IMG/VR virus record: IMGVR_UViG_3300042273_000539
DNA length: 20,000 bases
Strand: one strand, 5' to 3'
Origin: an uncultured virus (IMG/VR IMGVR_UViG_3300042273_000539)
Taxonomy: Duplodnaviria; Heunggongvirae; Uroviricota; Caudoviricetes
Position 1 is the stretch's first letter. Each line of letters starts with the position of its first letter. Below are positions 1-16,899 of this stretch, one piece after another. Position numbers and translations under genes: made by a program. The notes beneath the pieces are model-generated. The model searched no databases and was not told where the DNA came from. It saw only the letters and a program-made list of their open reading frames with translations.

Positions 1-187
1 CAAAATCATCTTCCACTAAATGAGCAGGTATTTCAACTATAGCGTAAATTTTTGGTTCTACATTCCACTGTTTTCTGTATAAATTCCCTGCTTTTCTTGT
101 TTCTGTTTTGTTCTTACACTTGAAGAAACAAAAACTTGAAGGTGAAATATAACCAGTATCAAAACAAAGACCATAAATTTTATCCAT
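1..187 (-). CDS. Hypothetical protein, 3' end runs off the window (MDKIYGLCFDTGYISPSSFCFF...)
   Basis: ATG at 187 preceded by GAGGT Shine-Dalgarno and promoter copy 1; frame is open to the window edge; not in the ORF track. Confidence 0.75.
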   Translation of the reverse strand, partial: MDKIYGLCFDTGYISPSSFCFFKCKNKTETRKAGNLYRKQWNVEPKIYAIVEIPAHLVEDDF

Positions 188-222
188 TTTTTACCTCTTT
201 TCTTTTGTGATACCTCATTATA

Positions 223-582
223 TCATTTTTTTAGTTTCTTGTCAAGTAGGTCTATCAAATGGATATTATCTATTCTCCTAAAACCACTATAACCCCCATT
301 TAGAACGCTTAAATAACCCTGCCATATCTCTTTTATGTTTATTACACCCCCTATTATGATTGCAATTGGTAAAGCAATAGTAGCAAAAAGTTTACCTAAT
401 ATATTAACTTTCGTATAATACGCAAATCTTTTTTCTTCCGTTTCTTTTAGAAAATATCTTCCATTCTTAAAAATCTTTATTCTAGTAGGCAAAAGTTTGT
501 TATGGTCTTTTCTTGACAACTTTACAATAGCATAACCATTTTTTAACCAATATTCATCAGCAGATATTTTTTTAGTATCCAT
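223..582 (-). CDS. Hypothetical protein with one hydrophobic segment
   Basis: 119-aa ORF, AAGGA RBS, follows promoter copy 2; C-terminus LDKKLKK* is encoded by repeat copy 1. Confidence 0.8.
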   Translation of the reverse strand: MDTKKISADEYWLKNGYAIVKLSRKDHNKLLPTRIKIFKNGRYFLKETEEKRFAYYTKVNILGKLFATIALPIAIIIGGVINIKEIWQGYLSVLNGGYSGFRRIDNIHLIDLLDKKLKK

Positions 583-618
583 TGTTTCATCCTTTCATAC
601 CATCATCATAGCATTTTT

Positions 619-990
619 TTAGTTTCTTGTCAAGTAGGCAGAAAATTCAGCTTCAAATTCTCTCATTCTATTGTTCTTGTGCGTATTAAGAAGTGGTAAA
701 AGCCTTTCCTTTTCTTTGCTAAAGATATTCCATACAATCCTTAAAACATTAGCCATATTTTCATAATCCTCAAAACAGACATCTTTATAATAAAGATAAT
801 AACTATCCTTCACGTTTATTCTCAACAGAAGATTGCCTATCTCTATCTTAGCCCACGATTTAAAGACAGTATTAGCTTCAAATACGGAAGTTTTTACCCC
901 TTCTTTTCTACACGCTATACATATATCTATCACTTCGTGCGCTAGTTTGTTTAGTTCTTTATCAAAAAATCTTTTTTCTTTTCTTGTCAT
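619..990 (-). CDS. Hypothetical protein
   Basis: 123-aa ORF, GAGG RBS just after promoter copy 3; C-terminus LTRN* is encoded by repeat copy 2. Confidence 0.8.
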   Translation of the reverse strand: MTRKEKRFFDKELNKLAHEVIDICIACRKEGVKTSVFEANTVFKSWAKIEIGNLLLRINVKDSYYLYYKDVCFEDYENMANVLRIVWNIFSKEKERLLPLLNTHKNNRMREFEAEFSAYLTRN

Positions 991-1034
991 AACGCCTCTT
1001 TATTATAGCATTTTTTTAGTTTCTTGTCAAGCCC

Positions 1035-1130
1035 CTATCCAAGATGTTTAAAACATAAAATGACCCATATTGCCATAAGAATAGCAAATACACCTACTAA
1101 CCACAACAACCATATACCTAACTGTACCAT
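1035..1130 (-). CDS. 31-aa single-pass membrane peptide MVQLGIWLLWLVGVFAILMAIWVILCFKHLG
   Basis: Manual translation; the ATG lies inside repeat copy 4, whose unique A>G variant creates AAGGA 9 nt upstream; ORF fills the whole inter-repeat unit. Confidence 0.65.
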   Translation of the reverse strand: MVQLGIWLLWLVGVFAILMAIWVILCFKHLG

Positions 1131-1145
1131 TTTTTTAGTTCCTTG

Positions 1146-1316
1146 TCAAGATGCTACAATGCCCATTTTTTCCAGAAAATTTTCCGTGTCCTCGTTTATT
1201 TGGTCTATTGCATTATAGATTGCTTCAAACTTACCCGCAACATCAAACGGTCGTATCACTTCTATTACTTTCATAAACGATTCCCACTTTGCAGAATTGA
1301 TTGCCTCTTGATTCAT
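1146..1316 (-). CDS. 56-aa hypothetical protein MNQEAINSAKWESFMKVIEV...
   Basis: Manual translation; shares the leader GATGGCATGACAAGGGGGCTGT-ATG with the ORFs starting at 1741 and 2526; stop TGA is within TTGACA of copy 4. Confidence 0.8.
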   Translation of the reverse strand: MNQEAINSAKWESFMKVIEVIRPFDVAGKFEAIYNAIDQINEDTENFLEKMGIVAS

Positions 1317-1363
1317 ACAGCCCCCTTGTCATGCCATCATTGTAGCATTTTTTTAGTTTCTTG

Positions 1364-1741
1364 TCAAGCCCCTATTACTTTAAAAGGTTTGTCCCATTTC
1401 CCGATATGAATATCTACATACCACCCCACGTCAAAATAATCTACCATAACATTAGAGTTGTCATGATTGCCAACCATCATAGCATTTCGGCAAGCCTGTA
1501 ATAGTTCAGCGTTTCTACCCGTAAAATGACTATCAATATGATATACATTCACGTCGTGCCTATCCCTATTTGGCATATCTTCAAGAAGATTCAAAGAACA
1601 TTCCTGTATTGTCATAACAATGCTACTTCTATTGCGAACGCTATATGTTGCCTTAATCTTCACATCTGGAAATTGTTCCGCAAGCACTTTTTTGACATTT
1701 TCCACTAATACCTTTTTTCGTTCTTGGTTCATGTAAGCCAT
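1364..1741 (-). CDS. Conserved phage-type protein with DNSNVMVDYFDVGWY motif (resembles LPD25/LPD29-type 'DxMxDYFD' polyvalent-protein domains)
   Basis: 125-aa ORF, AAGGGGG RBS, own promoter (copy 6); family resemblance from recall only. Confidence 0.75.
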   Translation of the reverse strand: MAYMNQERKKVLVENVKKVLAEQFPDVKIKATYSVRNRSSIVMTIQECSLNLLEDMPNRDRHDVNVYHIDSHFTGRNAELLQACRNAMMVGNHDNSNVMVDYFDVGWYVDIHIGKWDKPFKVIGA

Positions 1742-1796
1742 ACAGCCCCCTTGTCATGCCATCATTATAGCATTTTTTTAGTTTCTTGTCAAGCCC

Positions 1797-1889
1797 CTAT
1801 CTGCCGAACTCGGCAAGGGCAATACTTTCCGCTAGTTCATACGGATACCCTAAACTAATATACAAGTCTATTATTTCTTCAAATGTCAT
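1797..1889 (-). CDS. 30-aa peptide MTFEEIIDLYISLGYPYELAESIALAEFGR
   Basis: Manual translation; fills the unit between copies 7 and 6; ATG is 6 nt after the -10 hexamer TAAGGT. Confidence 0.65.
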   Translation of the reverse strand: MTFEEIIDLYISLGYPYELAESIALAEFGR

Positions 1890-1928
1890 ACTAGCACCTT
1901 ACCATTTTTTTAGTTTCTTGTCAAGCCC

Positions 1929-2015
1929 CTAAAATTCGTCATCATCAAAGAAATAGTCGTCAAAATCGTCAAAATCGTCAAACTCAACAGACACAATACT
2001 TTCCCATACTTCCAT
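1929..2015 (-). CDS. 28-aa highly acidic peptide MEVWESIVSVEFDDFDDFDDYFFDDDEF
   Basis: Manual translation; GAGGT RBS; follows promoter copy 8 and stops just before copy 7. Confidence 0.7.
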   Translation of the reverse strand: MEVWESIVSVEFDDFDDFDDYFFDDDEF

Positions 2016-2109
2016 TCAAGAACCTCGCTTCATGCCATCATTGTAGCATTTTTTTAGTTTCTTGTCAAGTAGGTAATGTTTCCACCATTTGGATACACCA
2101 CCCCTACTT

Positions 2110-2162
2110 AGCCATCGTCAGTACCAGTATCACTGGCAGACCGCCCGAAAGCGGTTTCGGCT
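2110..2162 (-). ncRNA. Type II hammerhead ribozyme
   Basis: Minus strand AGCC-GAAA-CCGCU(UUCG)GGCGG-UC^UGCCAG(UGAUA)CUGGUA-CUGACGA-U-GGCU: GAAA, GUC cleavage triplet, CUGANGA core and all three stems are present; predicted cleavage between 2139 and 2138. Confidence 0.92.
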
Positions 2163-2181
2163 TATGTAGGATACCATTTTT

Positions 2182-2526
2182 TTAGTTTCTTGTCAAGAGG
2201 GACAAAGGGCGGATAAAGTCTTGTGATACAACACGCACAGAACGCCCGTTTTCTATACTGATTACAGCTTTCCCCTTGTCGTGTCGGTATTCCTCTACCT
2301 TGCAAGGAATAAGCACACCTTTCCCGCCTTTGGTATGATAGCACGCAATACTTCCCACAGGACACAATTCTTCCGCATTTGTCACAGGGACACCATACGC
2401 CTTTACTCTATAATCAGGTTTTACCCTAGCATAACTCTTTTTTCCAGTAGGACATACGTGTACCCCTAGTGGCTCATTACGATATTCTCCAGCCTTAACT
2501 TGTTCCAGTAAACCATAGTCAGTCAT
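2182..2526 (-). CDS. Hypothetical protein
   Basis: 114-aa ORF with the shared leader and AAGGGGG RBS after copy 10; ends LTRN* in copy 9. Confidence 0.8.
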   Translation of the reverse strand: MTDYGLLEQVKAGEYRNEPLGVHVCPTGKKSYARVKPDYRVKAYGVPVTNAEELCPVGSIACYHTKGGKGVLIPCKVEEYRHDKGKAVISIENGRSVRVVSQDFIRPLSLLTRN

Positions 2527-2987
2527 ACAGCCCCCTTGTCATGCCATCATTATAGCATTTTTTTAGTTTCTTGTCAAGCCCCTAATCGGCAGAACCGACT
2601 AACGATTGACTCGCTCAAAATACCATTTTTTTAGTTTCTTGTCAAGCCCCTCTTGCCTTGCTTGGCAAGCGGAAACGACACGCTTAAAATACTATTTTTT
2701 TAGTTTCTTGTCAAGCCCCTTGCAAGTGTTTTCCTTGCAAGGCGTTGACCGCTTCATACCATTATTTTATCATTTTTTTAGTTTCTTGTCAAGCCCCTCG
2801 CACGTATTTTCTTATAAGGAAAACAGGCGGGCGTGCGTGCGGGCGCACGCCCACGCGATATATCATTATAGCATTTTTTTAGTTTCTTGTCAAGCGGGTA
2901 AAAAATTTTCGTAAATCCTTATAATATATAGAGTTATTTATAATGTTTATTAGGGTATATACAAAAGTTAGAGGGGATTTAAATAGG

Positions 2988-3014
2988 CAAAACCCCTATA
3001 TAATAGGGGTTTTG
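2988..3014. repeat. Perfect 12-bp inverted repeat CAAAACCCCTAT-ATA-ATAGGGGTTTTG (possible terminator or DNA signal)
   Basis: Seen directly in the AT-rich noncoding gap 2895-3102. Confidence 0.7.
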
Positions 3015-3102
3015 AGGCACTTTTTTTGTGGTGGTAGTGCGACACCGATATAGGTATTTTTTAGAAATTTTTTGCTTTTTTTATAAATTTTAGAAAAAAT
3101 TT

Positions 3103-3672
3103 TTAGAAAATTTCAAAATTTTCCCAAAGAACTTTTTTCCCAGCTTTGTCTTTTTCGTAATCAAACAATCTTTGTATTCCAGTTTCAACATGGTAAAAAA
3201 TTACATCACTGCCAGAACGAACTACACATTTTCCTTCATTATTTACTGATATTAAAACTATATGGGTTTTACTAACGAAGTTAGAATGACCCCAAGAACC
3301 TTTACCACTTTGGCTTATTTTGTATAATCTTTTTACCAACTTTTCAGCGGCTGGTGATAAATATTTTTTCTGCTCTTTCTTTAGTTTGTCAATTTTTTCT
3401 TTTTTCTCTTTTCTTTCGGCTTCATCTTCGTCAATGTCAAAATCTTTGTACTGATATTGTTTTCCGCCTACTGCCTTCATAAGTTTTGAAAACGTAGAAT
3501 AAATTTTTGCCTTACTATCCAAAGAAGGTTTATTAAATTCTTCAACCTCTTCTGGTGTTTTAGATCCTGCGTAAAACGATTTGTCATTTACTTTATACAC
3601 GTAAAGATTTTCGCCTTCCGTCCGGTGGGTTACTCTCGCCCCTACGAATGCGTTATCTTTTGTCAATTCCAT
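3103..3672 (-). CDS. Hypothetical protein
   Basis: 189-aa ORF, GGGAGG RBS. Confidence 0.85.
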   Translation of the reverse strand: MELTKDNAFVGARVTHRTEGENLYVYKVNDKSFYAGSKTPEEVEEFNKPSLDSKAKIYSTFSKLMKAVGGKQYQYKDFDIDEDEAERKEKKEKIDKLKKEQKKYLSPAAEKLVKRLYKISQSGKGSWGHSNFVSKTHIVLISVNNEGKCVVRSGSDVIFYHVETGIQRLFDYEKDKAGKKVLWENFEIF

Positions 3673-3687
3673 ATATACCTCCCAAGA

Positions 3688-4044
3688 TTATATGATATGT
3701 TTTTCTTTTTTAGTAAAGTTTTCCTTTACTTGTATTTTGTTTAATAAGTATCTTTTAGAAAAAATGTTTATAGAGCTTTCTTCTATACAATCCTTTGCGT
3801 ACTGAACTGGATTTGCTTTTGCTAGCATAGCCATAGCCATCCATCCACATAACATTTCTTCTAAACATTCTTTAGGCATATTTTTACCATGCCAATATTC
3901 GTAATGGTGCTTTTCTTTTTCTTTATGTTCTTCTTCCAACAGCGACACTTTTTCAATAAGCCTCTGTGATATATTTTTACCTTTTCTTAATAGATGAATA
4001 TATCTGGCAAAAAGAAAATAATGTTTAAAGAAAAAGTTATCCAT
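3688..4044 (-). CDS. Hypothetical protein (start revised to ATG 4044, MDNFFFKHY...)
   Basis: GGAG RBS before the ATG at 4044; the ORF-track extension to 4128 crosses a hairpin. Confidence 0.7.
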   Translation of the reverse strand: MDNFFFKHYFLFARYIHLLRKGKNISQRLIEKVSLLEEEHKEKEKHHYEYWHGKNMPKECLEEMLCGWMAMAMLAKANPVQYAKDCIEESSINIFSKRYLLNKIQVKENFTKKEKHII

Positions 4045-4141
4045 TTGTCTCCAGTTACAAAAAAGTGAAAACTTCTTTGCAACACGTATTAAGTAAATTT
4101 TATATACAACTATAAATGCTAGAAACACCGCCTATCCTTTT

Positions 4142-4318
4142 TTATTTTACAACAGATGCCTTATAATACGTATCAAGTTTACAATCACAATCTGTCTTTG
4201 TCATTGTAGCAGGAATTTGGTTTTTTGTCAACTCTTTTTTCTTCATGTCAACATATACATTAAATAATGCTCTAGATGCTTTTTCTTCTTCGGTGTCTAT
4301 TTCTATTTTAATCTTCAT
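4142..4318 (-). CDS. 58-aa hypothetical protein MKIKIEIDTEEEKASRALF...
   Basis: Manual translation; GGAG RBS; start overlaps the end of the upstream gene. Confidence 0.55.
   Translation of the reverse strand: MKIKIEIDTEEEKASRALFNVYVDMKKKELTKNQIPATMTKTDCDCKLDTYYKASVVK
4203..4231 (-). promoter_or_regulatory. sigma70-type promoter TTGACA-17-TACAAT with extended TG
   Basis: Minus strand TTGACAAAAAACCAAATTCCTGCTACAAT, a diverged relative of the array repeat. Confidence 0.75.
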
Positions 4319-4640
4319 AGGCTATATCTCCTGGTTTTACTGTTGTGTTAATGATTTGCCCTCCTTCTTCATAAGAAACGGAAACATATAGGACTTTTTC
4401 TTTGTTTTCTTCAAACGCTATAGGAACATATTGTACCGTAGCATTATCTACTATCCTTGTAGTGGAGGAAGGGAAAACTCCCTTTCCTCCACATTTTGGG
4501 CAAGTCATGCGATATTCCTTTGCGACACGTATTTCTCTGTTTCCTTTACAGACAGGGCAAGTATCATCTGTTGGAACTTTTACACTAAATTTTTCTTTGA
4601 AAATAGATTTGTCTAATACTTTCTCTAAAAATTTATCCAT
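4308..4640 (-). CDS. Protein with DnaJ-type zinc finger motifs
   Basis: CPVCKGNR ... CPKCGGKG in a 110-aa ORF. Confidence 0.75.
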   Translation of the reverse strand: MDKFLEKVLDKSIFKEKFSVKVPTDDTCPVCKGNREIRVAKEYRMTCPKCGGKGVFPSSTTRIVDNATVQYVPIAFEENKEKVLYVSVSYEEGGQIINTTVKPGDIAYED

Positions 4641-4641
4641 A

Positions 4642-4815
4642 TTATAATTCTTCTACCATTTCCTGTATTTCTTCTTCTTTATCAAAAAATTCTTGCATTG
4701 CTTCGTCATACCATTCCCAAGCATCAACTCCTGAATCTTCAAGTGCTTGGAGTTTTGCTTCTGCGAGAAGCAACTCCAAATACTCTTCTTTTGTTATTTC
4801 TACCATTTCTTTCAT
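4642..4815 (-). CDS. 57-aa acidic phage protein (MKEMVEITKEEYLELL...LEDSGVDAWEWYDEA)
   Basis: Manual translation; AGGAG RBS; fills the gap downstream of nrdJ. Confidence 0.8.
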   Translation of the reverse strand: MKEMVEITKEEYLELLLAEAKLQALEDSGVDAWEWYDEAMQEFFDKEEEIQEMVEEL

Positions 4816-4827
4816 TACTTTCTCCTA

Positions 4828-7800
4828 TCAACCGCAAGTAGAATATCCACAACTGCTACAAACCGTACAGCCACCCTCAAAAACCATAGTTCCACCACAT
4901 TCAGGGCATTCTGCTTTATTAGAAGAAATCATTTCTCCATCAGGTATATAATACTTCAATACCCTCGCAATGGCTTTTTGGAACGTCCCAAACTTCTTTA
5001 CTTTATTCATCTGTGCGACAATAAACTCCAATGGAACTTGATGCCTCATCAATAAAGAAAGCAATCTACACATAGAAGCATAATCATCATTAAACACCTC
5101 TGCTAAATTTTCTACTACTATCTTACTTCGCTTGCCTTCAATAAGCAAATCATATCTACTGGCTTTTTCAGCACCATCATATACCTTAACAATACTACCT
5201 TCTTTAAATCTCTTTAAATCAACTATATCATCATGATTATCTGTATAGAAGATTTCATATGGTGCGTTATTGTAAGGTGAATCTGGATTTTTACCAACTA
5301 GGACAATAACAGGTTCTTTATTAACTGTAATATCATAGATATCGCAAGGCAAGCTTTCTGGACGTTTCATAGCATTTTTCAATACCTCAATATTTCTCCA
5401 TCCATCATCTTTCTTTGTAGAAAGAATACCATCCATAGAAGCACCTTCATGAAAAGAAGTAACTCCCTTCAATCCCTTTTTCCAGGAATACATGAATATA
5501 TCTTTATATTGCTCTAGTGTAGTTTCAAAAGGCATGTTAATGGTTTTACTGATACTGTGGTCTATCCAGTATTGAAGTGCTGCCTGTATATCTATTCCTT
5601 CTGTAATAGATACATTATGGGATACCACTACATAATCAGGAAGATCATTTCCTTCTTTGTATCCTGCGTACTCTATGTATTCCAGCCATCCATCATCATA
5701 TACAGTTTGTGTTTTTGTGGTATCATCATCCTGTCTTATAGACCTATCATACTGCAAAGAGAAAATAGGCTCAATACCAGAAGAACAGTTATTTCCCAAA
5801 GACAAAGAAGTGGTGTTATGACTAACATATGAATTTGCAATATAAGTTCTTCCGTCTGGAACTTCCAAGTCTAAAGTGTAATTATTACTATCGCTTATAG
5901 CAACAACTTCATCAATAAACAATCCCTTTCCAAAATAATCATTAAGATAATCTACTTTCTCTTTTAAATCTTTTTTAATATATCTCTTTGCTCTCTCTTC
6001 TCCGATAGAGCCATATTTTTTCCAATAAATCCTGTAAGATAAATTGTTTGAATAGCTACCTTCATCAAGAGATTTATCATAAACTGAAATAGATGAATTA
6101 ATACCTACTGCTCTCATTATAATAGCTAATTGTTGAGCATTTTTTTCGGAATAAGTATCAATATACATTGTCCCTCTGCTGCTTGAACCATCACCATAAA
6201 AATATCCATCAATATAAGAAAGGATACTTTCTTTAGAAGATAATCTTACTGCTTTTGGAATTTCTATTCCTAATGCTTTATTTTTTATTAATCCATTAAT
6301 TTCTAAAAAGTTAAGTAATCTTTGAGAAGAAATATACACACTGTCACAATTTTTACCATTATCAACAACTTTAGAATTCCAATTAAATAAATTCTTAATC
6401 AGTTCAACAACTTCTATTGATTCATTTGTTAAATGATTTAAGTTAATTCTTATGCCTTTGTTGTGAGTGCTACCATCTGCATTATAAAGTCCTAAAAAGA
6501 AAGCAAATTCAGCGGTAATCTCTTCCGGTAATCTTATATCTTTTTCATTAGGGTGTTTTGCATAATCTGGAAGTATAAGCCGTTTATTATCTTTCTTTTC
6601 ATATCCTCCAATTTTATAAACTATATTATCTCCAACAGATAGGTCTTCAAGTTTCTTCCAGTCAAACGAAGTTCCATTTAACACTTTAAACTTATGATTT
6701 GGAGTTCCTTCTAAATTTACACCACTCTTTGTAGATATTTTTTTAGTAGGTTTAAATCCATTTATAAAAGTATTCCTTATTCCTTCGTACTTTTCATATT
6801 CGTTTAATGCTCCAAGATTTTCTTGTGGTATCCAAGTTCCATCTTCATAGTTTTTATAATTAGGAATTAATTCTTCCAATGTGTATAAACCATCGTTAGT
6901 TGATACAATACTTTCTGGAACAAGACATCCGGTTGGTGCCGTGGTTAATATACCAATGTTTCTTAACCCGACTTCTTGAATTCTTTTCTGTGTTCCTTCA
7001 CTTAACCTTGTAATAAATCCAGAATGCCCAATATGACTATCATAAGCAGGAAACGAGCCTTTTTGTAATGCTAAATCAACAGAAGCATTATACGCACTTT
7101 CTGCTAGGACATTTCCCATTTCATATACAAAATCTACACTTTCTTTACTTCCATATCTAATCTTTAATTTCAACAAAGCATCGCCAAGTCCTGTAATTCC
7201 AAGACCAATCCTTCTCCATGCTTTTGATATTTTCTCAATTTTTTCAAGAGGATAATCAGTAGCATCCAAGACATTATCCAAGAACCTTACTCCAAGTCTT
7301 GCCATGTTTTTAAATTCTTCCCAATCAAATTCTGCATTCTCTGTAAATTGATTTTTTACCAATTTAGAAAGATTGATAGAAGATAGACAGCAAAGAGAAT
7401 AAGAAGGCATTACGATTTCCATCAGTTATTGTTAAGCTCTTTATCTTAACTCTCCGATTTTCACCGGAGTGTCGGACTATATCTTCACCCATAATATGGG
7501 GCAGGGCGCTCGTGGGAAAATTACCTACCGTTCTGGTATCGTTTCCTAGTCTCTGAACCTTGCAGAGTATTCCTACTCTACCTTGGATGCTGATTAGCAT
7601 ATTCTTTTTCAAGAATTTAGCTTTCCAGCAGTTCACCCTGTTTTTTACTTGAGGCAAGATTATTTACCACAAGGATTGCATCTATCTACCTTAAAAGCGT
7701 GAGAAGCATTGTTTCCTGCTTCCACTGTATCAAGGAACAAAGCACCTGGCTCATTATACCACCAAGCCTGTTTAGTCATTCTTTCATACAAATCTTTTGC

Positions 7801-8580
7801 TCTTACAGTTTTATACACCTTTACTAAAATAAGATCTGTGTCGTCAACAGTATATCCTTGGTCTATACAATATTGTAAATCAAAGTTGTTTTTAACCCAT
7901 TTTGTTTTACAATTTTCTTCGCTTTCAAATTTCATAAGAGGGAATACCAAATCCCAGTCTTCATCATTTTCAACTGCTCTCATAAACTCATCAGTAATAC
8001 CTACTGAAATATTAAATTGAGTAAGTTTATTATTCTCTCTTCCTTTCTTATATTCAATAAATTCTTCAATATCTGGATGGTCTACATTAAGGATACAAAT
8101 GTGCGCCCCTCTACGACCACCTCCTGTATGTATAGCTTTAGCAGAAGTATCAAATACCTCTATAAAACTCATAACGCCAGAACTTTCTCCGCCTTTGCTA
8201 ATCAATGCGCCTTTAGGACGAAGTTTTGAAGCGTTAAATCCAACACCTCCACCCATTTGACCGATGATAGCATCTTCGCTTACTGGCCCATAAATGCCAG
8301 GCATTGAATCCTCTAAATCAATAGTAAAACAGTTGTTGTAGTTTTTCATTCTGGAATAAGGTCTAGCATTTGCCAATATTCTTCCCGCTGGGATAAATTT
8401 ACCAGAAATCATAGCTTGATAGAAATACTCTTGCCAAATGTTTTTTAAATTATCATCCGGTTCTACAGACGCTATTTCTTCTGCTACTCCTTTTAAGATT
8501 TCTTCTACTGTTTTTTCTCCGTGAAGAGCATATTTTCTAAAAAATATCTCCCTTGAAATATCCTGTTTAAATTCAAACAC
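4828..8580 (-). CDS. nrdJ: Class II (B12-dependent) ribonucleotide reductase; exon 1 8580-7666, exon 2 7419-4828; contains an intein (about 1168-aa precursor, about 797 aa mature)
   Basis: Motifs PAGRILANA, NCF, GGGVG, GGGRRGA, FNISV, EPG, joined NPCG^E, CCLSSINL, RRIGLGITG, TAPTG^T, SSGIEP, ISKTIN; C-terminal TSCPD-like region and CPECG...CSSCGYSTCG zinc ribbon; no beta subunit nearby. Confidence 0.93.
5815..6927 (-). mobile_element. Intein with LAGLIDADG homing endonuclease (371 aa) in NrdJ
   Basis: APTG|CLVPES...TPNHKF...LGLYNADGS...IDGYFYGDGS...DLEV...YIANSYVSHN|TTSL: Cys1, block B TxxH, two LAGLIDADG motifs, terminal His-Asn, +1 Thr. Confidence 0.96.
7420..7665 (-). ncRNA. Group I self-splicing intron (246 nt, probably subgroup IA2, no homing endonuclease)
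   Basis: 5' exon ends in U (GGU) and intron ends in G; P1 CUUGUGGU/GCCUCAAG with U-G pair; P3 CAGGGUG/CGCCCUG; P AACUGCUGGAAA, Q AAUCAGCA, R GUUCAGAGACUA, S AAGAUAUAGUCC; P9 CUCCGGU-GAAA-AUCGGAG; removal restores NPCGEI in frame. Confidence 0.95.
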
Positions 8581-8942: not shown

Positions 8943-9160
8943 TATTCTTCCTTATTCTTTATTAAAGTTTGATAAAATATTGTATCTTTAGGAGGTTTCA
9001 TAGGACGCTCTTTAGGGTCTAGTTGAAGAAATTTTTCCATTTCTTCTCTTATTTCCTTTTTAGAGAAGAATTTAGCTTTTAAGCCGATAGATTTAGCAAA
9101 TCGCTTCATTCTATACCTAAATATAAATTTATTAATTTTATCCTTAATATATTTCTTCAT
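8942..9160 (-). CDS. Small basic hypothetical protein
   Basis: 72-aa ORF in a tightly packed operon. Confidence 0.7.
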   Translation of the reverse strand: MKKYIKDKINKFIFRYRMKRFAKSIGLKAKFFSKKEIREEMEKFLQLDPKERPMKPPKDTIFYQTLIKNKEE

Positions 9161-9494
9161 ACTCTATGATTTCTAATCCATGCCTTATAGATAAATCTTT
9201 CATGCTCGCTGTTCCTCTACCATCAGGGAAAAGGATACAAACATTAGCATATTCAGCCATTTGTTTATTTCTTATAGGGCCAGCACTTTTACCATATTTA
9301 GCCCAGTTAGCTGGAAATGATTTTATTCTAATGTTCAATTCTTTTGCTATATCTTCACCAAATTTATCAGCCCCAGTACATCCACCACTTACTACTTCTT
9401 TTGCTTTAATTTCTAAAAGTTTTTCTTTTAACCAAGTTCTGTGCTTATCTAAAGGCGAGAAATCTCTTCCTCCAGCAACGATAACTTTTTTCAA
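9144..9494 (-). CDS. SLOG-superfamily protein (YspA/DUF2493-like)
   Basis: KVIVAGGRDF, VVSGGCTGAD and ANWAKYGKSAGPIRNKQMA motifs; AAGGAG RBS before a TTG start. Confidence 0.88.
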   Translation of the reverse strand: MKKVIVAGGRDFSPLDKHRTWLKEKLLEIKAKEVVSGGCTGADKFGEDIAKELNIRIKSFPANWAKYGKSAGPIRNKQMAEYANVCILFPDGRGTASMKDLSIRHGLEIIEYEEIY

Positions 9495-12963: not shown

Positions 12964-12992
12964 AGTATATATTTTTTTTACTTTTTAGTCAA
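12964..12992 (-). promoter_or_regulatory. sigma70-type promoter TTGACT-17-TATACT
   Basis: A-rich spacer resembling the array repeat; intergenic position. Confidence 0.8.
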
Positions 12993-13003
12993 TAAAATTT
13001 TAT

Positions 13004-13429
13004 TTATAGCTTGTCTTTCCACTTTTTGATATCTTCAAAAGCATATTTATTCAGTTCATCAATGAGCACAAACTGGTCTTTTGTAAAATGCCCAAATCCT
13101 ATTACTTTCTTGATTCTGCTTTTTGACCACAAAACCCTCATAGGAAAATCTCTTATGGTAGATATATCCACCCCATCTTCTTCTGACTTGTCAAGTACTT
13201 CTAAAATTCCTTGTAAGATATAACCAACAGTTGCTTGTCCTGAACCAAGTGGAGGAAAAGAAATTTCATATGGACTGATATTATAATTATCTATGGGAAT
13301 ACTAATTTGTGGAGTATTGTTAAAATGCCAAATTAAATCAATACGTATCCTACTACCATTAGCGTTAGTGGTGAGTAGTTCCTCTCCTACCTCTTTCTCA
13401 ATCTGTTCAAGTGTTTTAATTACTTTCAT
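13004..13429 (-). CDS. Hypothetical protein
   Basis: 141-aa ORF, GAGGAG RBS. Confidence 0.8.
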   Translation of the reverse strand: MKVIKTLEQIEKEVGEELLTTNANGSRIRIDLIWHFNNTPQISIPIDNYNISPYEISFPPLGSGQATVGYILQGILEVLDKSEEDGVDISTIRDFPMRVLWSKSRIKKVIGFGHFTKDQFVLIDELNKYAFEDIKKWKDKL

Positions 13430-13853
13430 TTCTTAACTCCTCTCTTATTTTCATAAGTAATTTCCCGAGATTATTTTCTCCCTTGCCTTCGTATACTCCC
13501 CAAAAGGTATCACGCCAGGTGTTCCCTTCAATGAGTATAGCGTTTCCAGTTTTTACCAATCTTTCTCCAAGAGCAGGAATTTGGGTAAATTTCGCCCGAA
13601 GAATGTTTTCCATTTCTTGGATTTTAACATCTTCCCAGTCTTTTCTTAATTTTACTTTTCTACCATACATTTTAGATTGACTTGGTTCAAAGTGAGAAAA
13701 ATTAATTTTATCCTCTTCATTGGCACACTTCTGGCATTGAAAAGCAGCTTCTGTACTGGTGAATTTTTGCCCTTTGTATACTATATCACAAGGATAAAAA
13801 TTACTTAAGAAAAAGTTCTTTTTTTCAAATTTGTCAATAATTCCGACTTTCAT
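13416..13853 (-). CDS. NADAR (YbiA-like) family ADP-ribosyl/N-glycosidase
   Basis: FLSNFY, STEAAFQCQK, GRKVKLRKDWE, KFTQ, LIEGNTWRDTFWG and GENNLGKLLMKIRE motifs. Confidence 0.93.
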   Translation of the reverse strand: MKVGIIDKFEKKNFFLSNFYPCDIVYKGQKFTSTEAAFQCQKCANEEDKINFSHFEPSQSKMYGRKVKLRKDWEDVKIQEMENILRAKFTQIPALGERLVKTGNAILIEGNTWRDTFWGVYEGKGENNLGKLLMKIREELRNESN

Positions 13854-13862
13854 TTAAATCTC

Positions 13863-14273
13863 CTATAAATGACATACGGTAATAGTAATGTCAACATCTT
13901 GAAATACTTCTTCTATAATCTCTCTTACTCTTCCCCATTGCAATCTATCTAAACCGCATCCTATTTTAGGCATAGCAACTTCTTTGATATTTAGTTGCAC
14001 AATTTGCCATTTCATTATTTCTAATGCTTTTCTTAAACTTTCATAAGTTGGTTTATTCCAGTATTTTTCTTTTGTAACCAAATTAAAAACATTACTCGTA
14101 AAAATACATTGAGGATATTTTCTATCTCCATTTTCTTTTAGGTATTGTTTTACTCTATATCTTTTAGAAACTTCTACTGCTATACCAGCGCCCATGGCAT
14201 AGTCCGCAGATATGCAGTGTGCTATAGGGCAAGTGTGGTTAAAAAGATTTTCCTTTTTTTCAATCAATTTCAT
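13863..14273 (-). CDS. Macrodomain ADP-ribosylhydrolase (TARG1/DarG/Poa1p-like class)
   Basis: AHCISADYAMGAGIA, FNLVTK, KPTYESL and MPKIGCGLDRLQW motifs. Confidence 0.92.
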   Translation of the reverse strand: MKLIEKKENLFNHTCPIAHCISADYAMGAGIAVEVSKRYRVKQYLKENGDRKYPQCIFTSNVFNLVTKEKYWNKPTYESLRKALEIMKWQIVQLNIKEVAMPKIGCGLDRLQWGRVREIIEEVFQDVDITITVCHL

Positions 14274-15036: not shown

Positions 15037-15579
15037 TTATTCCTTTATTAAAGCAAAATATCTAAAAATTTCATCATTACTTATAGGTTCAGAGTATTTT
15101 CCTTTTTCTCTAGCCCTATTCCAAGCATCTACCCAAGGTGTCTGATTAAGTGGAATATTTATCAAAGAAGTATAAGAATAGTCTTTGAAATGACATACTA
15201 CATCATCAATCAACTCTGCATCATATTTCTCAATAGGGTCTTTCCAATCTTCGTAAAAAAAGTTAAAAGGATAAGAAACATCAGGCTTTGTCTTTATAAC
15301 TTTTTTTATTTTAGGTATCCAAGAGCTTCCAAACATCTTAAATTCGTCATACACCTCTACAACTGTAGGGCCATTAGCCCAAGCATATATTTGCTCTGAA
15401 AAACAAGGTCTTCTGTTAAAAGAAGAAAACAAGAAAGATGCTTGACAAAAATATAAAAATTTTGTTAACCTGATATGGTCAACATATATATCATTATCAG
15501 AACAATAATTTATAATATGCCTTGCTACATCAATAGCATTATATACTTTTTTATTTCTCATTATTTCTGGTATTATCAT
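15037..15579 (-). CDS. Panacea (DUF4065)/SocA/GepA-like antitoxin-domain protein
   Basis: AIDVARHII, RLTKFLYFCQA, FSEQIYAWANGPTVVEVY, QTPW and ISNDEIFRYF match the family pattern. Confidence 0.88.
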   Translation of the reverse strand: MIIPEIMRNKKVYNAIDVARHIINYCSDNDIYVDHIRLTKFLYFCQASFLFSSFNRRPCFSEQIYAWANGPTVVEVYDEFKMFGSSWIPKIKKVIKTKPDVSYPFNFFYEDWKDPIEKYDAELIDDVVCHFKDYSYTSLINIPLNQTPWVDAWNRAREKGKYSEPISNDEIFRYFALIKE

Positions 15580-16536: not shown

Positions 16537-16565
16537 ATTATATTATTTTTTTAGTTTTTTGGCAA
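16537..16565 (-). promoter_or_regulatory. sigma70-type promoter TTGCCA-17-TATAAT
   Basis: TTGCCAAAAAACTAAAAAAATAATATAAT; spacer shares AAACTAAAAAAA with the array repeat. Confidence 0.8.
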
Positions 16566-16870: not shown

Positions 16871-16899
16871 AGTATATTGTTTTTTTAGTTTTTTGGCAA
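16871..16899 (-). promoter_or_regulatory. sigma70-type promoter TTGCCA-17-TATACT
   Basis: Near-duplicate of 16537-16565, directly downstream of the terminator. Confidence 0.8.

Follow-up and report, generated by a model that had tools for sequence, protein, structure and literature searches.

Organisation of the locus

The window, meaning the whole 20-kb stretch of DNA that was analysed, comes from an uncultured tailed phage. Its long ORFs all lie on the minus strand, as do the promoters described here. Between 217 and 2893, a minus-strand 23-nt core, CTTGACAAGAAACTAAAAAAATG, occurs 14 times in direct orientation, with mismatches at 2 of 322 positions. Each copy carries a promoter (P14 to P1, from the array head to its tail) that stands ahead of the cargo of one unit (U14 to U1). 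A unit typically consists of a leader, a cargo ORF and the stop of that ORF. The cargo comprises six protein ORFs, three ORFs of 28-31 aa, one hammerhead-like RNA and four ORF-less hairpin units. The features are as follows, from head to tail.

2989..3013, minus strand, terminator-like hairpin AAAACCCCTAT..ATAGGGGTTTT, read from the sequence; identical in related contig L009; absent from the terminator scan listing
2865..2893, minus strand, P14, TTGACA-17-TATAAT, TG present (repeat and promoter scans)
2793..2858, minus strand, U14 cargo, no ORF; GC-rich 11-bp hairpin with T run (2827-2854), then a second small hairpin
2764..2792, minus strand, P13, TTGACA-17-TAAAAT, TG present (repeat and promoter scans)
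2715..2757, minus strand, U13 cargo, no credible ORF; leader remnant and 9-bp hairpin CCTTGCAAG..CTTGCAAGG
2686..2714, minus strand, P12, TTGACA-17-TATTTT, without TG, core variant (repeat and promoter scans)
2646..2679, minus strand, U12 cargo, hairpin only, CTTGCC..GGCAAG; fold z -2.4
2617..2645, minus strand, P11, TTGACA-17-TATTTT, TG present (repeat and promoter scans)
2578..2610, minus strand, U11 cargo, hairpin only; leader paralogous to that of U12; fold z -2.95
2549..2577, minus strand, P10, TTGACA-17-TATAAT, TG present, then shared leader GATGGCATGACAAGGGGGCTGT ahead of ATG
2182..2526, minus strand, U10 cargo, 114-aa ORFan; TAA stop within the P9 spacer
2168..2196, minus strand, P9, TTGACA-17-TATCCT, TG present
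2106..2162, minus strand, U9 cargo, type II hammerhead-like RNA (Rfam RF02276 and fold)
2071..2103, minus strand, hairpin after the hammerhead-like RNA, directly before P8 (fold)
2040..2068, minus strand, P8, TTGACA-17-TACAAT, TG present
1929..2015, minus strand, U8 cargo, very acidic 28-aa micro-ORF; its stop is the TAG of TAGGGGC
1896..1924, minus strand, P7, TTGACA-17-TAAGGT, TG present; ATG without Shine-Dalgarno sequence; -10 and leader differ in related contig L002
1797..1889, minus strand, U7 cargo, micro-ORF of 30 aa whose 3' end contains a hairpin
1764..1792, minus strand, P6, TTGACA-17-TATAAT, TG present, shared leader
1364..1741, minus strand, U6 cargo, 125-aa protein; TGA stop inside the P5 -35
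1339..1367, minus strand, P5, TTGACA-17-TACAAT, TG present, shared leader; joint at which L002 has an extra unit
1146..1316, minus strand, U5 cargo, 56-aa ORF; TGA stop inside the P4 -35; ortholog in L002
1121..1149, minus strand, P4, TTGACA-17-TACAGT, TG present; core variant AGG
1035..1130, minus strand, U4 cargo, hydrophobic 31-aa micro-ORF; its stop is the TAG of TAGGGGC
1002..1030, minus strand, P3, TTGACA-17-TATAAT, TG present, leader AAAGAGG
619..990, minus strand, U3 cargo, 123-aa ORF; TAA stop in the P2 spacer; weak phrog_6809 match
605..633, minus strand, P2, TTGACA-17-TATGAT, TG present
223..582, minus strand, U2 cargo, 119-aa ORF; TGA stop at the TG of P1
217..245, minus strand, P1, TTGACA-17-TATAAT, TG present
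2..187, minus strand, U1 cargo, ORF (62 aa or more) leaving the window at its left end

The array holds at least 14 copies. This is a lower bound, since U1 leaves the window and further copies are seen in related sequences: in this lineage, contigs L014 and L015, as well as a loose end in sequencing run X1, have additional copies of the promoter that carry different cargo.

A fixed promoter module

All 14 copies read TTGACA-17-TAnnnT, and 13 of them have a TG one base 5' of the -10. The match to the sigma70 consensus is 10-12 of 12 positions across the copies and is perfect in five. A 21-mer, TTGACAAGAAACTAAAAAAAT (minus strand), to which the 23-nt core adds one base on either side, has 14 sites between 225 and 2893 (13 exact, one with a single mismatch) and two further, diverged copies outside the array at 16545 and 16879. 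Only 0.01 matches are expected by chance, and the total of 16 was reached in 0 of 200 shuffles. The core itself is exact in 12 of 14 copies; its single changes are in U4 (1129-1149, AGG for AGA) and U12 (2694-2714, TAG for TGN). An earlier note on this DNA had counted 14 direct copies with single-base variants in copies 4 and 12 only, and both statements hold. It had also described a spacer that is fixed while the middle of the -10 varies, always within TTGACA-17-[-10], which the counts bear out. The T, the A and the last T of the -10, the positions most strictly read by sigma, are each present in 14/14 copies. Of the cells of its middle three positions, 15 of 42 are non-consensus, compared with 2 of 322 for the core (Fisher p = 8e-14), making the core about 60 times better conserved.

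In the direction of transcription, the module runs from a G-rich stop block through C-TTGACA, the fixed 17-nt A-rich spacer, TG and TAnnnT to a short Shine-Dalgarno leader. The flank 5' of the -35 is TAGGGGC in 9/14 copies and CCTAC in 3/14. Stops in all three frames mark the upstream side (TAG, TGA in TTGACA and TAA in AACTAA), and a promoter with a ribosome-binding site marks the downstream side. The stops of all eight complete array ORFs fall at this boundary, three in the TAG just 5' of the next promoter and five inside that promoter. An ATG lies 10-24 nt past the -10 in nine units, three of which have in common a 22-nt leader with AAGGGGG ahead of the ATG.

On its letters, the repeat shows all the sequence features expected of a strong promoter of host type. 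Host primary-sigma RNA polymerase would start at each copy early in infection. It is very unlikely that the repeats are something other than promoters, such as replication-origin iterons, packaging signals or a non-productive sink for host RNA polymerase. In favour of such roles, the DNA is AT-rich, has numerous direct repeats of about 22 nt and includes four units without an ORF. However, unit lengths range from 68 to 425 nt with no helical phasing of the repeat spacing, the distance to a Shine-Dalgarno sequence and start codon is short and fixed in nine units, the -10 is invariant and free at the positions expected from sigma70 recognition, and no initiator gene is evident in the window.

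Promoter function alone leaves the fixed spacer unaccounted for. The array could be a battery of strong early promoters with a T7-like tandem head, in which spacer and flanks are selected as protein-binding sites and recombination is incidental. Candidates for the bound protein would be a shut-off repressor, a sigma-modifying factor or the RNA polymerase alpha subunit, of phage or host. The far stronger conservation of the core than of the -10 middle favours this proposal. Dispersed promoters in the window also have much of the array spacer (AAAAACTAAAAAAAT at 16545, with one more change at 16879, and AAAAAC at 4231), which points to a function of the A-rich spacer beyond the array. Further, C-TTGACA-AG is read from the sequence as a 9-bp palindrome, and similar CTTGC..GCAAG palindromes occur in units 7, 12 and 13. 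Against this, the palindrome is lost in two copies of L002 (AAA for AAG), no DNA-binding regulator was identified among the window ORFs, and the unit indel and leader swap described below show that exchange at the repeat happens and survives. The proposal is considered unlikely as the main explanation, and it and exchange at the repeats are not mutually exclusive.

Hairpins and a hammerhead-like RNA

Clear hairpins stand ahead of the next promoter in six of the 14 units (U14, U13, U12, U11, U9 and U7), with a T run in one only. That one, at 2827-2854 in U14, is terminator-like by the terminator scan (predicted fold of the unit -29.3 kcal/mol, z -2.2) and corrects the earlier view that no terminator lies between units. 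It is 12 nt shorter in L009, so its length is not conserved. Since this is the only terminator-like hairpin between units, transcripts probably run on as a nested set. The hairpin at 2989..3013 lies just upstream of the array, between it and the gene at 3103-3672.

The predicted fold of U13 (-16.7 kcal/mol, z -4.1) was equalled by 0/200 shuffles. The repeat extensions of U11 and U12 are 93% identical, and U11-U13 look like diverged duplicates of one ORF-less module because they share leader and layout. The earlier note gave each unit one cargo; U11-U13 are better read as duplicates than as three cargos. The first four promoter-hairpin units could act as a tandem promoter cluster with an attenuator, and the hairpins, possibly together with a self-cleaving hammerhead, may cut or shield RNAs.

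Type II hammerheads (RF02276) of bacteria and phages are described as having a CUGANGA core, GAAA and a cut after NUH, such as GUC, and most members have a pseudoknot that pairs loop I with the tail following stem II; a role in processing long phage transcripts is suggested in the same account (Perreault et al., 2011, PMC3088659). The U9 RNA scores 28.3 bits against RF02276, under the Rfam gathering threshold of 37 (E 0.041 for 20 kb, 0.0022 for 1.1 kb). Its core consists of CUGACGA at 2121-2115, GAAA at 2158-2155 and GUC at 2141-2139, and the predicted cut falls between 2139 and 2138. Both the lowest-energy and the centroid fold of 2069-2167 form a three-way junction in which stem II is open and the other two, I and III, are capped, as in type II hammerheads. 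Unlike these, the RNA falls below the threshold, has an extra U (inserted at 2114) between A9 and stem II, has a stem I loop of 3 nt and has its own promoter. The usual pseudoknot between loop I and the 3' tail appears doubtful in the folding models, in which the upper part of stem I would have to open before a 4-bp GAUA/UAUC pairing could form.

Cargo genes

The cargo genes are real, as judged by the pN/pS of U6 against L002 (0.026/0.208) and by the 30-aa ORF of U7, which is kept as a protein in L002 (33 aa) although its leader differs. The U6 protein belongs to phrog_10415, a family that is widespread in phages and of unknown function; one member is encoded in a T4-like phage, among consecutive small hypothetical genes. 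A structure model of U6 (pLDDT 87) gave no fold match. The U10 ORFan has only three relatives among 5.8 billion proteins, the last 30 nt of the U8 ORF are identical in L002, and no relative was seen for the U4 micro-ORF. No cargo matched a family of known function (Pfam, 0 families for the array ORFs tested; PHROGs, unknown function only), and the host-takeover or anti-defence role that the earlier note gave to the cargo is therefore hypothetical.

Unit exchange between related phages

An independent metagenome contig, L002, is collinear with the array and 85-93% identical over units 8-5, spanning four promoters. It carries one extra unit of 274 nt, with an ORF of 78-79 aa, at the P5 joint, and the gap runs exactly from repeat to repeat. 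This is one case, in which insertion and deletion are not distinguishable. The breakpoint is not placeable within the shared sequence, as expected of homologous exchange. In unit 7, the -10 and leader are replaced in L002 by another leader type, and both flanking ORFs remain orthologous. Gain or loss of units in relatives with breakpoints in the repeat, as anticipated in the earlier note, is thus found in that L002 differs by exactly one unit. Two L002 copies of the repeat have drifted, with one and three changes per 23 nt, so core identity is not absolute.

Among the sequencing runs, record 9 of X10 has unit 2, then 506 other letters and then a diverged hammerhead-type unit downstream of unit 2; as a short-read contig, it could represent another strain or a paralogous region of the genome. 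The case for unit-level exchange is thin, consisting of one clean indel, one leader swap and this one short-read contig with a different neighbour. Run X18 consists of RNA-library contigs, in which RNA and carried-over DNA are not separable.

There is next to no likelihood that the array or its unit order is an artefact of short-read assembly, collapsed on the repeat. Short-read contigs in the runs do break at most repeats. Nevertheless, L002 crosses four promoters, and L009 spans the upstream edge of the array and crosses its first promoter. In X1, which is perhaps the source sample of the window itself, 8/8 listed pieces are without differences, and record 1 crosses two repeats. Records 11 and 12 of X10 keep the window order for units 6-5 and 10-9. 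In addition, 8 of the 24 listed runs, each from a different study, contain at least half of the words of the stretch.

Exact runs common to pairs of copies have a median of 26 nt and a maximum of 61 nt, the longest being between the P10 leader region and U6, and reach at least 30 nt in 13 of 91 pairs. Such lengths are close to the shortest that homologous recombination can use. No process beyond ordinary homologous recombination is needed to account for the exchange of units.

Comparison with known systems

The precedent named in the earlier note, the PeSL elements of T4-type phages, is the right one. In the accounts given of them, PeSLs are repeats of a sigma70 promoter and a stem-loop, the latter described as a terminator or attenuator, with an upstream stop and a downstream Shine-Dalgarno sequence and start as their bounds; they lie beside ORFans, and between phi1 and RB49 they coincide with indels of single ORFs (Arbiol et al., 2010, PMC2839356). 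They are reported from RB49/phi1, T4/PST and KVP40/nt-1 (PMC2839356; Comeau et al., 2014, PMC4122927). Like PeSLs, the array repeats a sigma70-consensus early promoter module with the same boundaries (8/8 complete ORFs), fronts ORFans in a variable region and differs between relatives by a single unit cut at the repeats, here in one case, for which homologous recombination suffices. Unlike PeSLs, it has a G-rich rather than AT-rich flank 5' of the -35 (TAGGGGC), a 17-nt spacer fixed throughout, stem-loops that are clear in 6/14 units only, one with a T run, and five units without an ORF, one of them hammerhead-like. It is also tandem and very dense, with 14 copies in 2.7 kb and units down to 68 nt. 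Within the 20-kb window, neither a DNA search with 1-8000 nor a search with the 462-aa tail protein gave a T4-like match.

The host-takeover module of the Bacillus phage SPO1 is described as a set of small early genes with promoters and ribosome-binding sites of the highly expressed type (PMC6873191). The array is likewise a cluster of mostly small early genes with such signals, but SPO1 groups its genes in operons whereas the array has a near-identical promoter per gene. In the Pfam and PHROG family scans, nothing of known function matched the cargo, and to that extent no likeness to SPO1 genes (37-60) was seen.

The T7 early region opens with promoters A1-A3 in tandem; after them, RNase III hairpins lie between its cistrons. 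P14-P11 are similar in that several strong promoters of host type precede the first early gene in tandem, and by analogy the array hairpins that lack a T run could serve for RNA processing or stabilisation. In T7 there are only the three promoters at the head instead of one for each gene, they are not near-identical, and shuffling at them is not known.

The array resembles integrons in having single-cargo cassettes that are gained or lost at a repeated joint. A true integron-like system, with units moved at the repeat by a site-specific recombinase encoded elsewhere in the phage, is highly improbable. One cargo per repeat and the repeat-to-repeat indel agree with it, and both fit any cassette system. 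However, a scan of 30 window ORFs turned up no integrase or recombinase domain, and each unit brings a promoter of its own, where an integron has promoterless cassettes behind a single common one. The units are joined by a direct repeat that lacks the imperfect inverted repeat of a folded attC site, and the unplaceable breakpoint fits homologous exchange. The earlier note took the repeat for both a promoter and a recombination joint in an integron-like array. The promoter features, the unit indel and the leader swap support the first two, and the integron likeness is only an analogy because no integrase was found in the window.

Implications for phage early regions

The array is likely to be a set of early promoters for host sigma70/sigmaA in which the repeats serve as homologous-recombination joints and which works like the PeSL cassettes of T4-type phages. 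Between the array and a related phage the difference is exactly one unit, with its cuts at the repeat, which makes this a gene-shuffling layout resembling one known from T4-type phages. The locus is best read as a hyperplastic early-gene region in an uncultured wastewater phage that is tailed and AT-rich. With stops upstream and a promoter and ribosome-binding site downstream, any exchange inside the module would give closed, expressed genes. Comparison shows the identical core in use as a crossover point for homologous recombination, with whole units gained or lost from one related phage to another.

The promoter repeat

Each of the 14 units of the array, numbered 14 to 1 along the minus strand, begins with a copy of the same promoter. 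The sequence TTGACAAGAAACTAAAAAAAT has 14 minus-strand copies within 225-2893, against a chance expectation of 0.01, and two diverged copies are found outside the array, at 16545 and 16879. Together with one base on each side it forms a 23-nt core, which is exact in 12 of the 14 copies and carries a one-base change in the other two, giving 2 mismatches over 322 positions. The promoter form TTGACA-17-nt spacer-TAnnnT is present in 14/14 copies, and an extended -10, with TG one base upstream of the -10, is present in 13/14. In the -10 hexamer the TA and the final T never vary (14/14), and of the 42 cells at its three middle positions 15 depart from the consensus (Fisher p = 8e-14 versus the core). 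The flanks of the module, taken as 10 nt on either side, are non-consensus in 62/140 and 55/140 cells. Both the 14-copy core with its TTGACA-17-[-10] geometry and the fixed spacer next to a variable -10 middle, as described in the earlier note, are borne out by these counts. Conservation is distributed as it should be in a promoter that a primary sigma factor recognises. The wholly fixed spacer is an unexplained extra beyond this pattern; it could be kept for recombination homology, for a bound protein or for promoter strength. The exact runs that two copies share are 26 nt long in the median and at most 61 nt (units 10 and 6).

Four promoters of the same family, with a looser, A-rich spacer, are dispersed over the window:

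4203-4231, minus strand: dispersed promoter
12964-12992, minus strand: dispersed promoter
16537-16565, minus strand: dispersed promoter
16871-16899, minus strand: dispersed promoter

The copy at 16565 reads TTGCCA-AAAAACTAAAAAAAT.. and the fixed spacer of the array is probably a homogenised form of a genome-wide early-promoter consensus. Other identities for the repeats were considered and rejected: a CRISPR-like array (the repeats are promoters, and irregularly spaced), iterons, promoters served by a single-subunit polymerase of the phage itself (the consensus matches the host sigma), and an operator built on the inverted repeat ATGCTA..TAGCAT around the -10 (present in some copies only). The segment C-TTGACA-AG is a 9-bp palindrome, CTTGACAAG, and units 13, 12 and 7 have related palindromes in their hairpin stems (CCTTGCAAGG, CTTGCC..GGCAAG and TGCCGA..TCGGCA; 2625-2800 and 1800-1830, minus strand). 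These may reflect a shared protein-binding motif or chance; the palindrome is absent from two promoters of the related contig L002.

Module edges

The sequence TAGGGGC precedes the promoter in 9 of the 14 copies. In the resulting string, TAGGGGC-TTGACA-AGAAACTAA, the stops TAG, TGA and TAA provide one stop per frame, and all eight complete ORFs of the array end in this block: three use the TAG, two the TGA within the -35, two the spacer TAA and one the TGA at the TG element. On the other side, the leaders are of a few types that run as far as the start codon.

Leader types of the array
GATGGCATGACAAGGGGGCTGT-ATG: units 10, 6 and 5
GATGGTATGAAAGGATGAAACA-ATG: unit 2 and relatives
AAAGAGG: unit 3

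Cargo of the units

The array is preceded by a terminator-like hairpin, and its units carry both coding and non-coding cargo.

Features of the array and its upstream edge
2989-3013, minus strand: terminator-like hairpin preceding the array, identical in the related contig L009
Unit 10: 114-aa ORFan
Unit 9: hammerhead-like RNA and hairpin
Unit 8 (1929-2015, minus strand): 28-aa acidic ORF
Unit 7: 30-aa ORF
Unit 6: 125-aa protein
Unit 5: 56-aa ORF
Unit 4: 31-aa hydrophobic ORF
Unit 3: 123-aa ORF
Unit 2: 119-aa ORF
Unit 1: ORF running off the window

Units 14-11 have no credible ORF; each consists of a promoter, a short leader and a hairpin, with fold z-scores of -2.2 to -4.1. Leader remnants are common to units 13, 12 and 11, which look like diverged duplicates. 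The earlier note saw no intrinsic terminator between units, and this holds except at unit 14, where a terminator scan locates a hairpin with a T run, the sole terminator-like site inside the array. The exact form of this hairpin is not conserved, because it is 12 nt shorter in L009. The GC fraction of the cargo is 0.46-0.65 in units 14-9 and falls to about 0.30 in units 3-1. One RNA library (run X18) has contigs on units 10-12, on a portion of unit 6 and on the gene upstream; such contigs do not show strand or starts, and they may stem from carried-over DNA. The intergenic DNA at 3040-3110, which separates the 189-aa gene from the terminator-like hairpin, is very AT-rich, with repeated TTTTTAGAAA(A/T)TTTT words.

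The Rfam type II hammerhead model matches unit 9 at 2106-2162 (minus strand) with 28.3 bits, below the 37-bit threshold (E 0.041 for the window, 0.0022 for 1.1 kb). The elements located by hand are CUGACGA (2121-2115), GAAA (2158-2155) and GUC, with a predicted cut site between 2139 and 2138. Stem I has 7 bp and stem III 5-6 bp with a UUCG-like loop; stem II is open (AGCC/GGCU) and extendable by CCUAC/GUAGG. The lowest-energy fold reproduces the hammerhead junction. One flaw is that an extra U (2114) separates A9 from stem II; in viroid hammerheads, an extra base at the same place can be tolerated. A diverged copy in the related run X10 lacks exactly base 2114 according to the indel table, a hint that this deletion would restore a canonical core. 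The pseudoknot usual in type II hammerheads (PMC3088659) is doubtful here because the stem I loop has only 3 nt. The RNA is quite likely a hammerhead-derived motif, and the chances that it cleaves itself usefully are about even. The same source suggests that bacterial and phage type II hammerheads process long phage transcripts (PMC3088659), and such a role would fit unit 9.

Pfam contains no family for the array ORFs tested, and PHROGs returns families of unknown function only (phrog_10415 for unit 6 and, weakly, phrog_6809 for unit 3). A search of solved-structure sequences with four cargos gave nothing below E 0.02. The unit 10 protein has only three relatives among 5.8 billion proteins. 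The unit 6 family has 1590 matches, none usefully named; its members occur in many phages (66 records), and in the T4-like Pectobacterium phage POP12 one sits among consecutive small hypothetical genes. The unit 6 model is confident (pLDDT 87.3), but Foldseek finds no matching fold in the PDB at E <= 0.001, and an Atlas search with unit 3 gave no usable match. Since no function was found for the cargos, the label "host-takeover/anti-defence" is a guess from position and size. Between unit 6 and its ortholog in L002, pN is 0.026 and pS 0.208; for unit 5 the values are 0.068 and 0.094 over 55 codons, which is uninformative.

The 28-aa ORF of unit 8 is 46% Asp or Glu (MEVWESIVSVEFDDFDDFDDYFFDDDEF), has a GAGG Shine-Dalgarno and could encode a tiny acidic mimic or binder; in one relative its last 30 nt alone are seen, and these are identical. 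Unit 7 (1889-1924, minus strand) has a weak -10, TAAGGT, with 6 nt to the ATG and no Shine-Dalgarno. Its message may be leaderless, or it may be translated only from read-through RNA with AAGGTG as ribosome site. The ortholog in L002 has a normal leader, and the 30-aa ORF is retained there as a related 33-aa protein despite the different leader.

Exchange of units among relatives

A scan with the core returned 21 metagenome loci and 2 genome loci. Four of these 23 are relatives (contigs L002, L009, L014 and L015), and one, L005, whose kinship is unclear, has just a single promoter-like match. The other 18, which carry the AGG variant and fall mostly within coding sequence from unrelated organisms, were dropped as chance matches. 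Over units 8-5, L002 (1100 nt) aligns with the window at 85-93% identity. Between units 6 and 5 it has an additional unit of 274 nt, composed of a promoter, an AAAGAGG-type leader and an ORF of 78-79 aa that stops at the TGA of the following -35. The gap in the alignment extends exactly from one GGGGCTTGACAAGAAACTAAAAAAATG copy to the next. The gain or loss of a unit with breakpoints in the repeat, which the earlier note proposed to look for, can therefore be seen in a relative. In addition, unit 7 of L002 has a different type of -10 and leader (TACAAT GATAGCATGAAAGGATGAAAC), with orthologous ORFs on either side; this is a patch exchange between modules. The cores of L002 differ from that of the window by 1, 3, 0 and 0 bases; core identity is thus strong, not absolute. 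Run joints that fit the repeat at several places were left out of the analysis. At the level of sequence comparison, L002 demonstrates that units are exchanged at the repeat.

The run X10 holds a relative of roughly 90% identity. One of its contigs (3470 nt) has unit 2, then 506 unaligned letters and then a diverged hammerhead unit, as judged by alignment positions only; other contigs keep the window order for units 6-5 and 10-9. The X10 lineage therefore has a second hammerhead-type unit, either replacing window content or lying beyond the window edge. L014 and L015 combine this promoter with different cargos, in some cases two ORFs behind one promoter, and a loose end in run X1 matches one of them, so the module family is larger than the window shows. 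In one X1 contig, present at about half the local depth, 3 nt are inserted at 2165, and X1 also has a joint that connects the hammerhead core with a promoter copy; these data hint at a second hammerhead-type unit of the window's own lineage outside the window. In L014 (1-520, minus orientation), a last promoter unit is followed by three promoterless ORFs and a gene with a CxxxCxxC radical-SAM motif, which may mark the downstream edge of an array in that phage.

The phage and its occurrence

The window is AT-rich (about 25-44% GC per 500 nt) and its long tiling ORFs are all on the minus strand. A domain scan and Rfam identify a ribonucleotide reductase gene split by a group I intron and with an intein inside; the intron was found by an Rfam scan of 451 nt and missed by the whole-window scan.

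7452-7703, minus strand: group I intron RF00028 (74.1 bits, threshold 50)
7660-8580 and 4828-7422, minus strand: ribonucleotide reductase large-subunit exons, split by the RF00028 intron

The C-terminal exon (4828-7422, minus strand) contains the intein with a LAGLIDADG domain (Pfam Intein_splicing, LAGLIDADG_3), so that one gene holds both elements. Other products are a pyrimidine-dimer glycosylase, NADAR, Macro and Panacea-domain proteins and a P2-I-type tail protein, and this gene content shows that the window comes from a tailed phage. A run of genes with YAcAr/SLOG, NADAR, Macro and SocA_Panacea domains lies outside the array, at 9144-9494, 13416-13853, 13863-14273 and 15037-15579 (minus strand); these domains are often tied to counter-defence or signalling.

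Parts of the window are present in 24 public runs, mostly labelled wastewater metagenomes, and at least half of its words are present in 8 of them. In the phage collection, DNA of window 1-8000 is matched at the intron region only, the sole part of it matching known phages, and the 462-aa tail protein has 0 matches. In viral_contigs, exact and degenerate promoter patterns give 0 loci and the 403-aa protein has no confirmed locus. Nothing close to the window is found in either set.

Proposed mechanism

Host RNA polymerase would fire at all promoter copies early in infection. Without terminators, transcripts would run on and downstream genes would receive the sum of the upstream promoters, and hairpins and the ribozyme would trim or protect the RNAs. 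P14-P11 would act as a tandem promoter cluster at the head of the array, like the tandem promoters A1-A3 at the head of the T7 early region. Homologous recombination would exchange units at the repeat, with recombinants kept viable by the three-frame stop block and the built-in leader.

A further reading, which we consider unlikely, is that the array is a "landing pad" on which swapped-in ORFs or small RNAs are expressed at once, some slots being purposely non-coding. Its basis may lie in the invariant promoter core, the three-frame stop block and the standard leader. Units 11-14 could then be abundant early hairpin RNAs, decoys or modulators of RNA polymerase or RNase, and the promoter-driven hammerhead and hairpin of unit 9 could serve as a self-cleaving insulator between cistrons, the function of the engineered element RiboJ.

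Comparison with known systems and significance

The closest known system is the promoter-early stem-loop (PeSL) cassette of T4-type phages (PMC2839356, PMC4122927), the precedent already proposed; promoter-repeat shuffling of early ORFans is described for these phages in PMC2839356. PeSLs and the array share a sigma70 promoter repeat bounded by stop and start, ORFan cargo and single-unit indels. Unlike PeSLs, the array belongs to a phage with no T4 likeness in the searches made, its upstream flank is G-rich whereas that of PeSLs is AT-rich, and stem-loops occur in only 6 of its 14 units. Its spacer is fixed, its density is extreme and it includes ORF-less and ribozyme-like units. The earlier interpretation of a shufflable, integron-like array is retained as regards exchange of units at the repeat, but the integron likeness holds only as an analogy: a scan of 30 window ORFs revealed no recombinase domain, every unit is driven by a promoter of its own and the repeat does not fold like an attC site. 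The array is not an integron.

PeSL-type promoter-repeat shuffling is also at work in an unrelated, uncultured wastewater phage, and in an unusually pure form: the 23-nt core is invariant, the stop block serves three frames and the shortest units measure 68 nt. Should the promoters have the strength that their sequence suggests, the module would be a portable expression unit ready for use. The array also provides a compact list of candidate early effectors, comprising six small proteins, three micropeptides, several small RNAs and a possible ribozyme, which can be screened for host-takeover or counter-defence activity.
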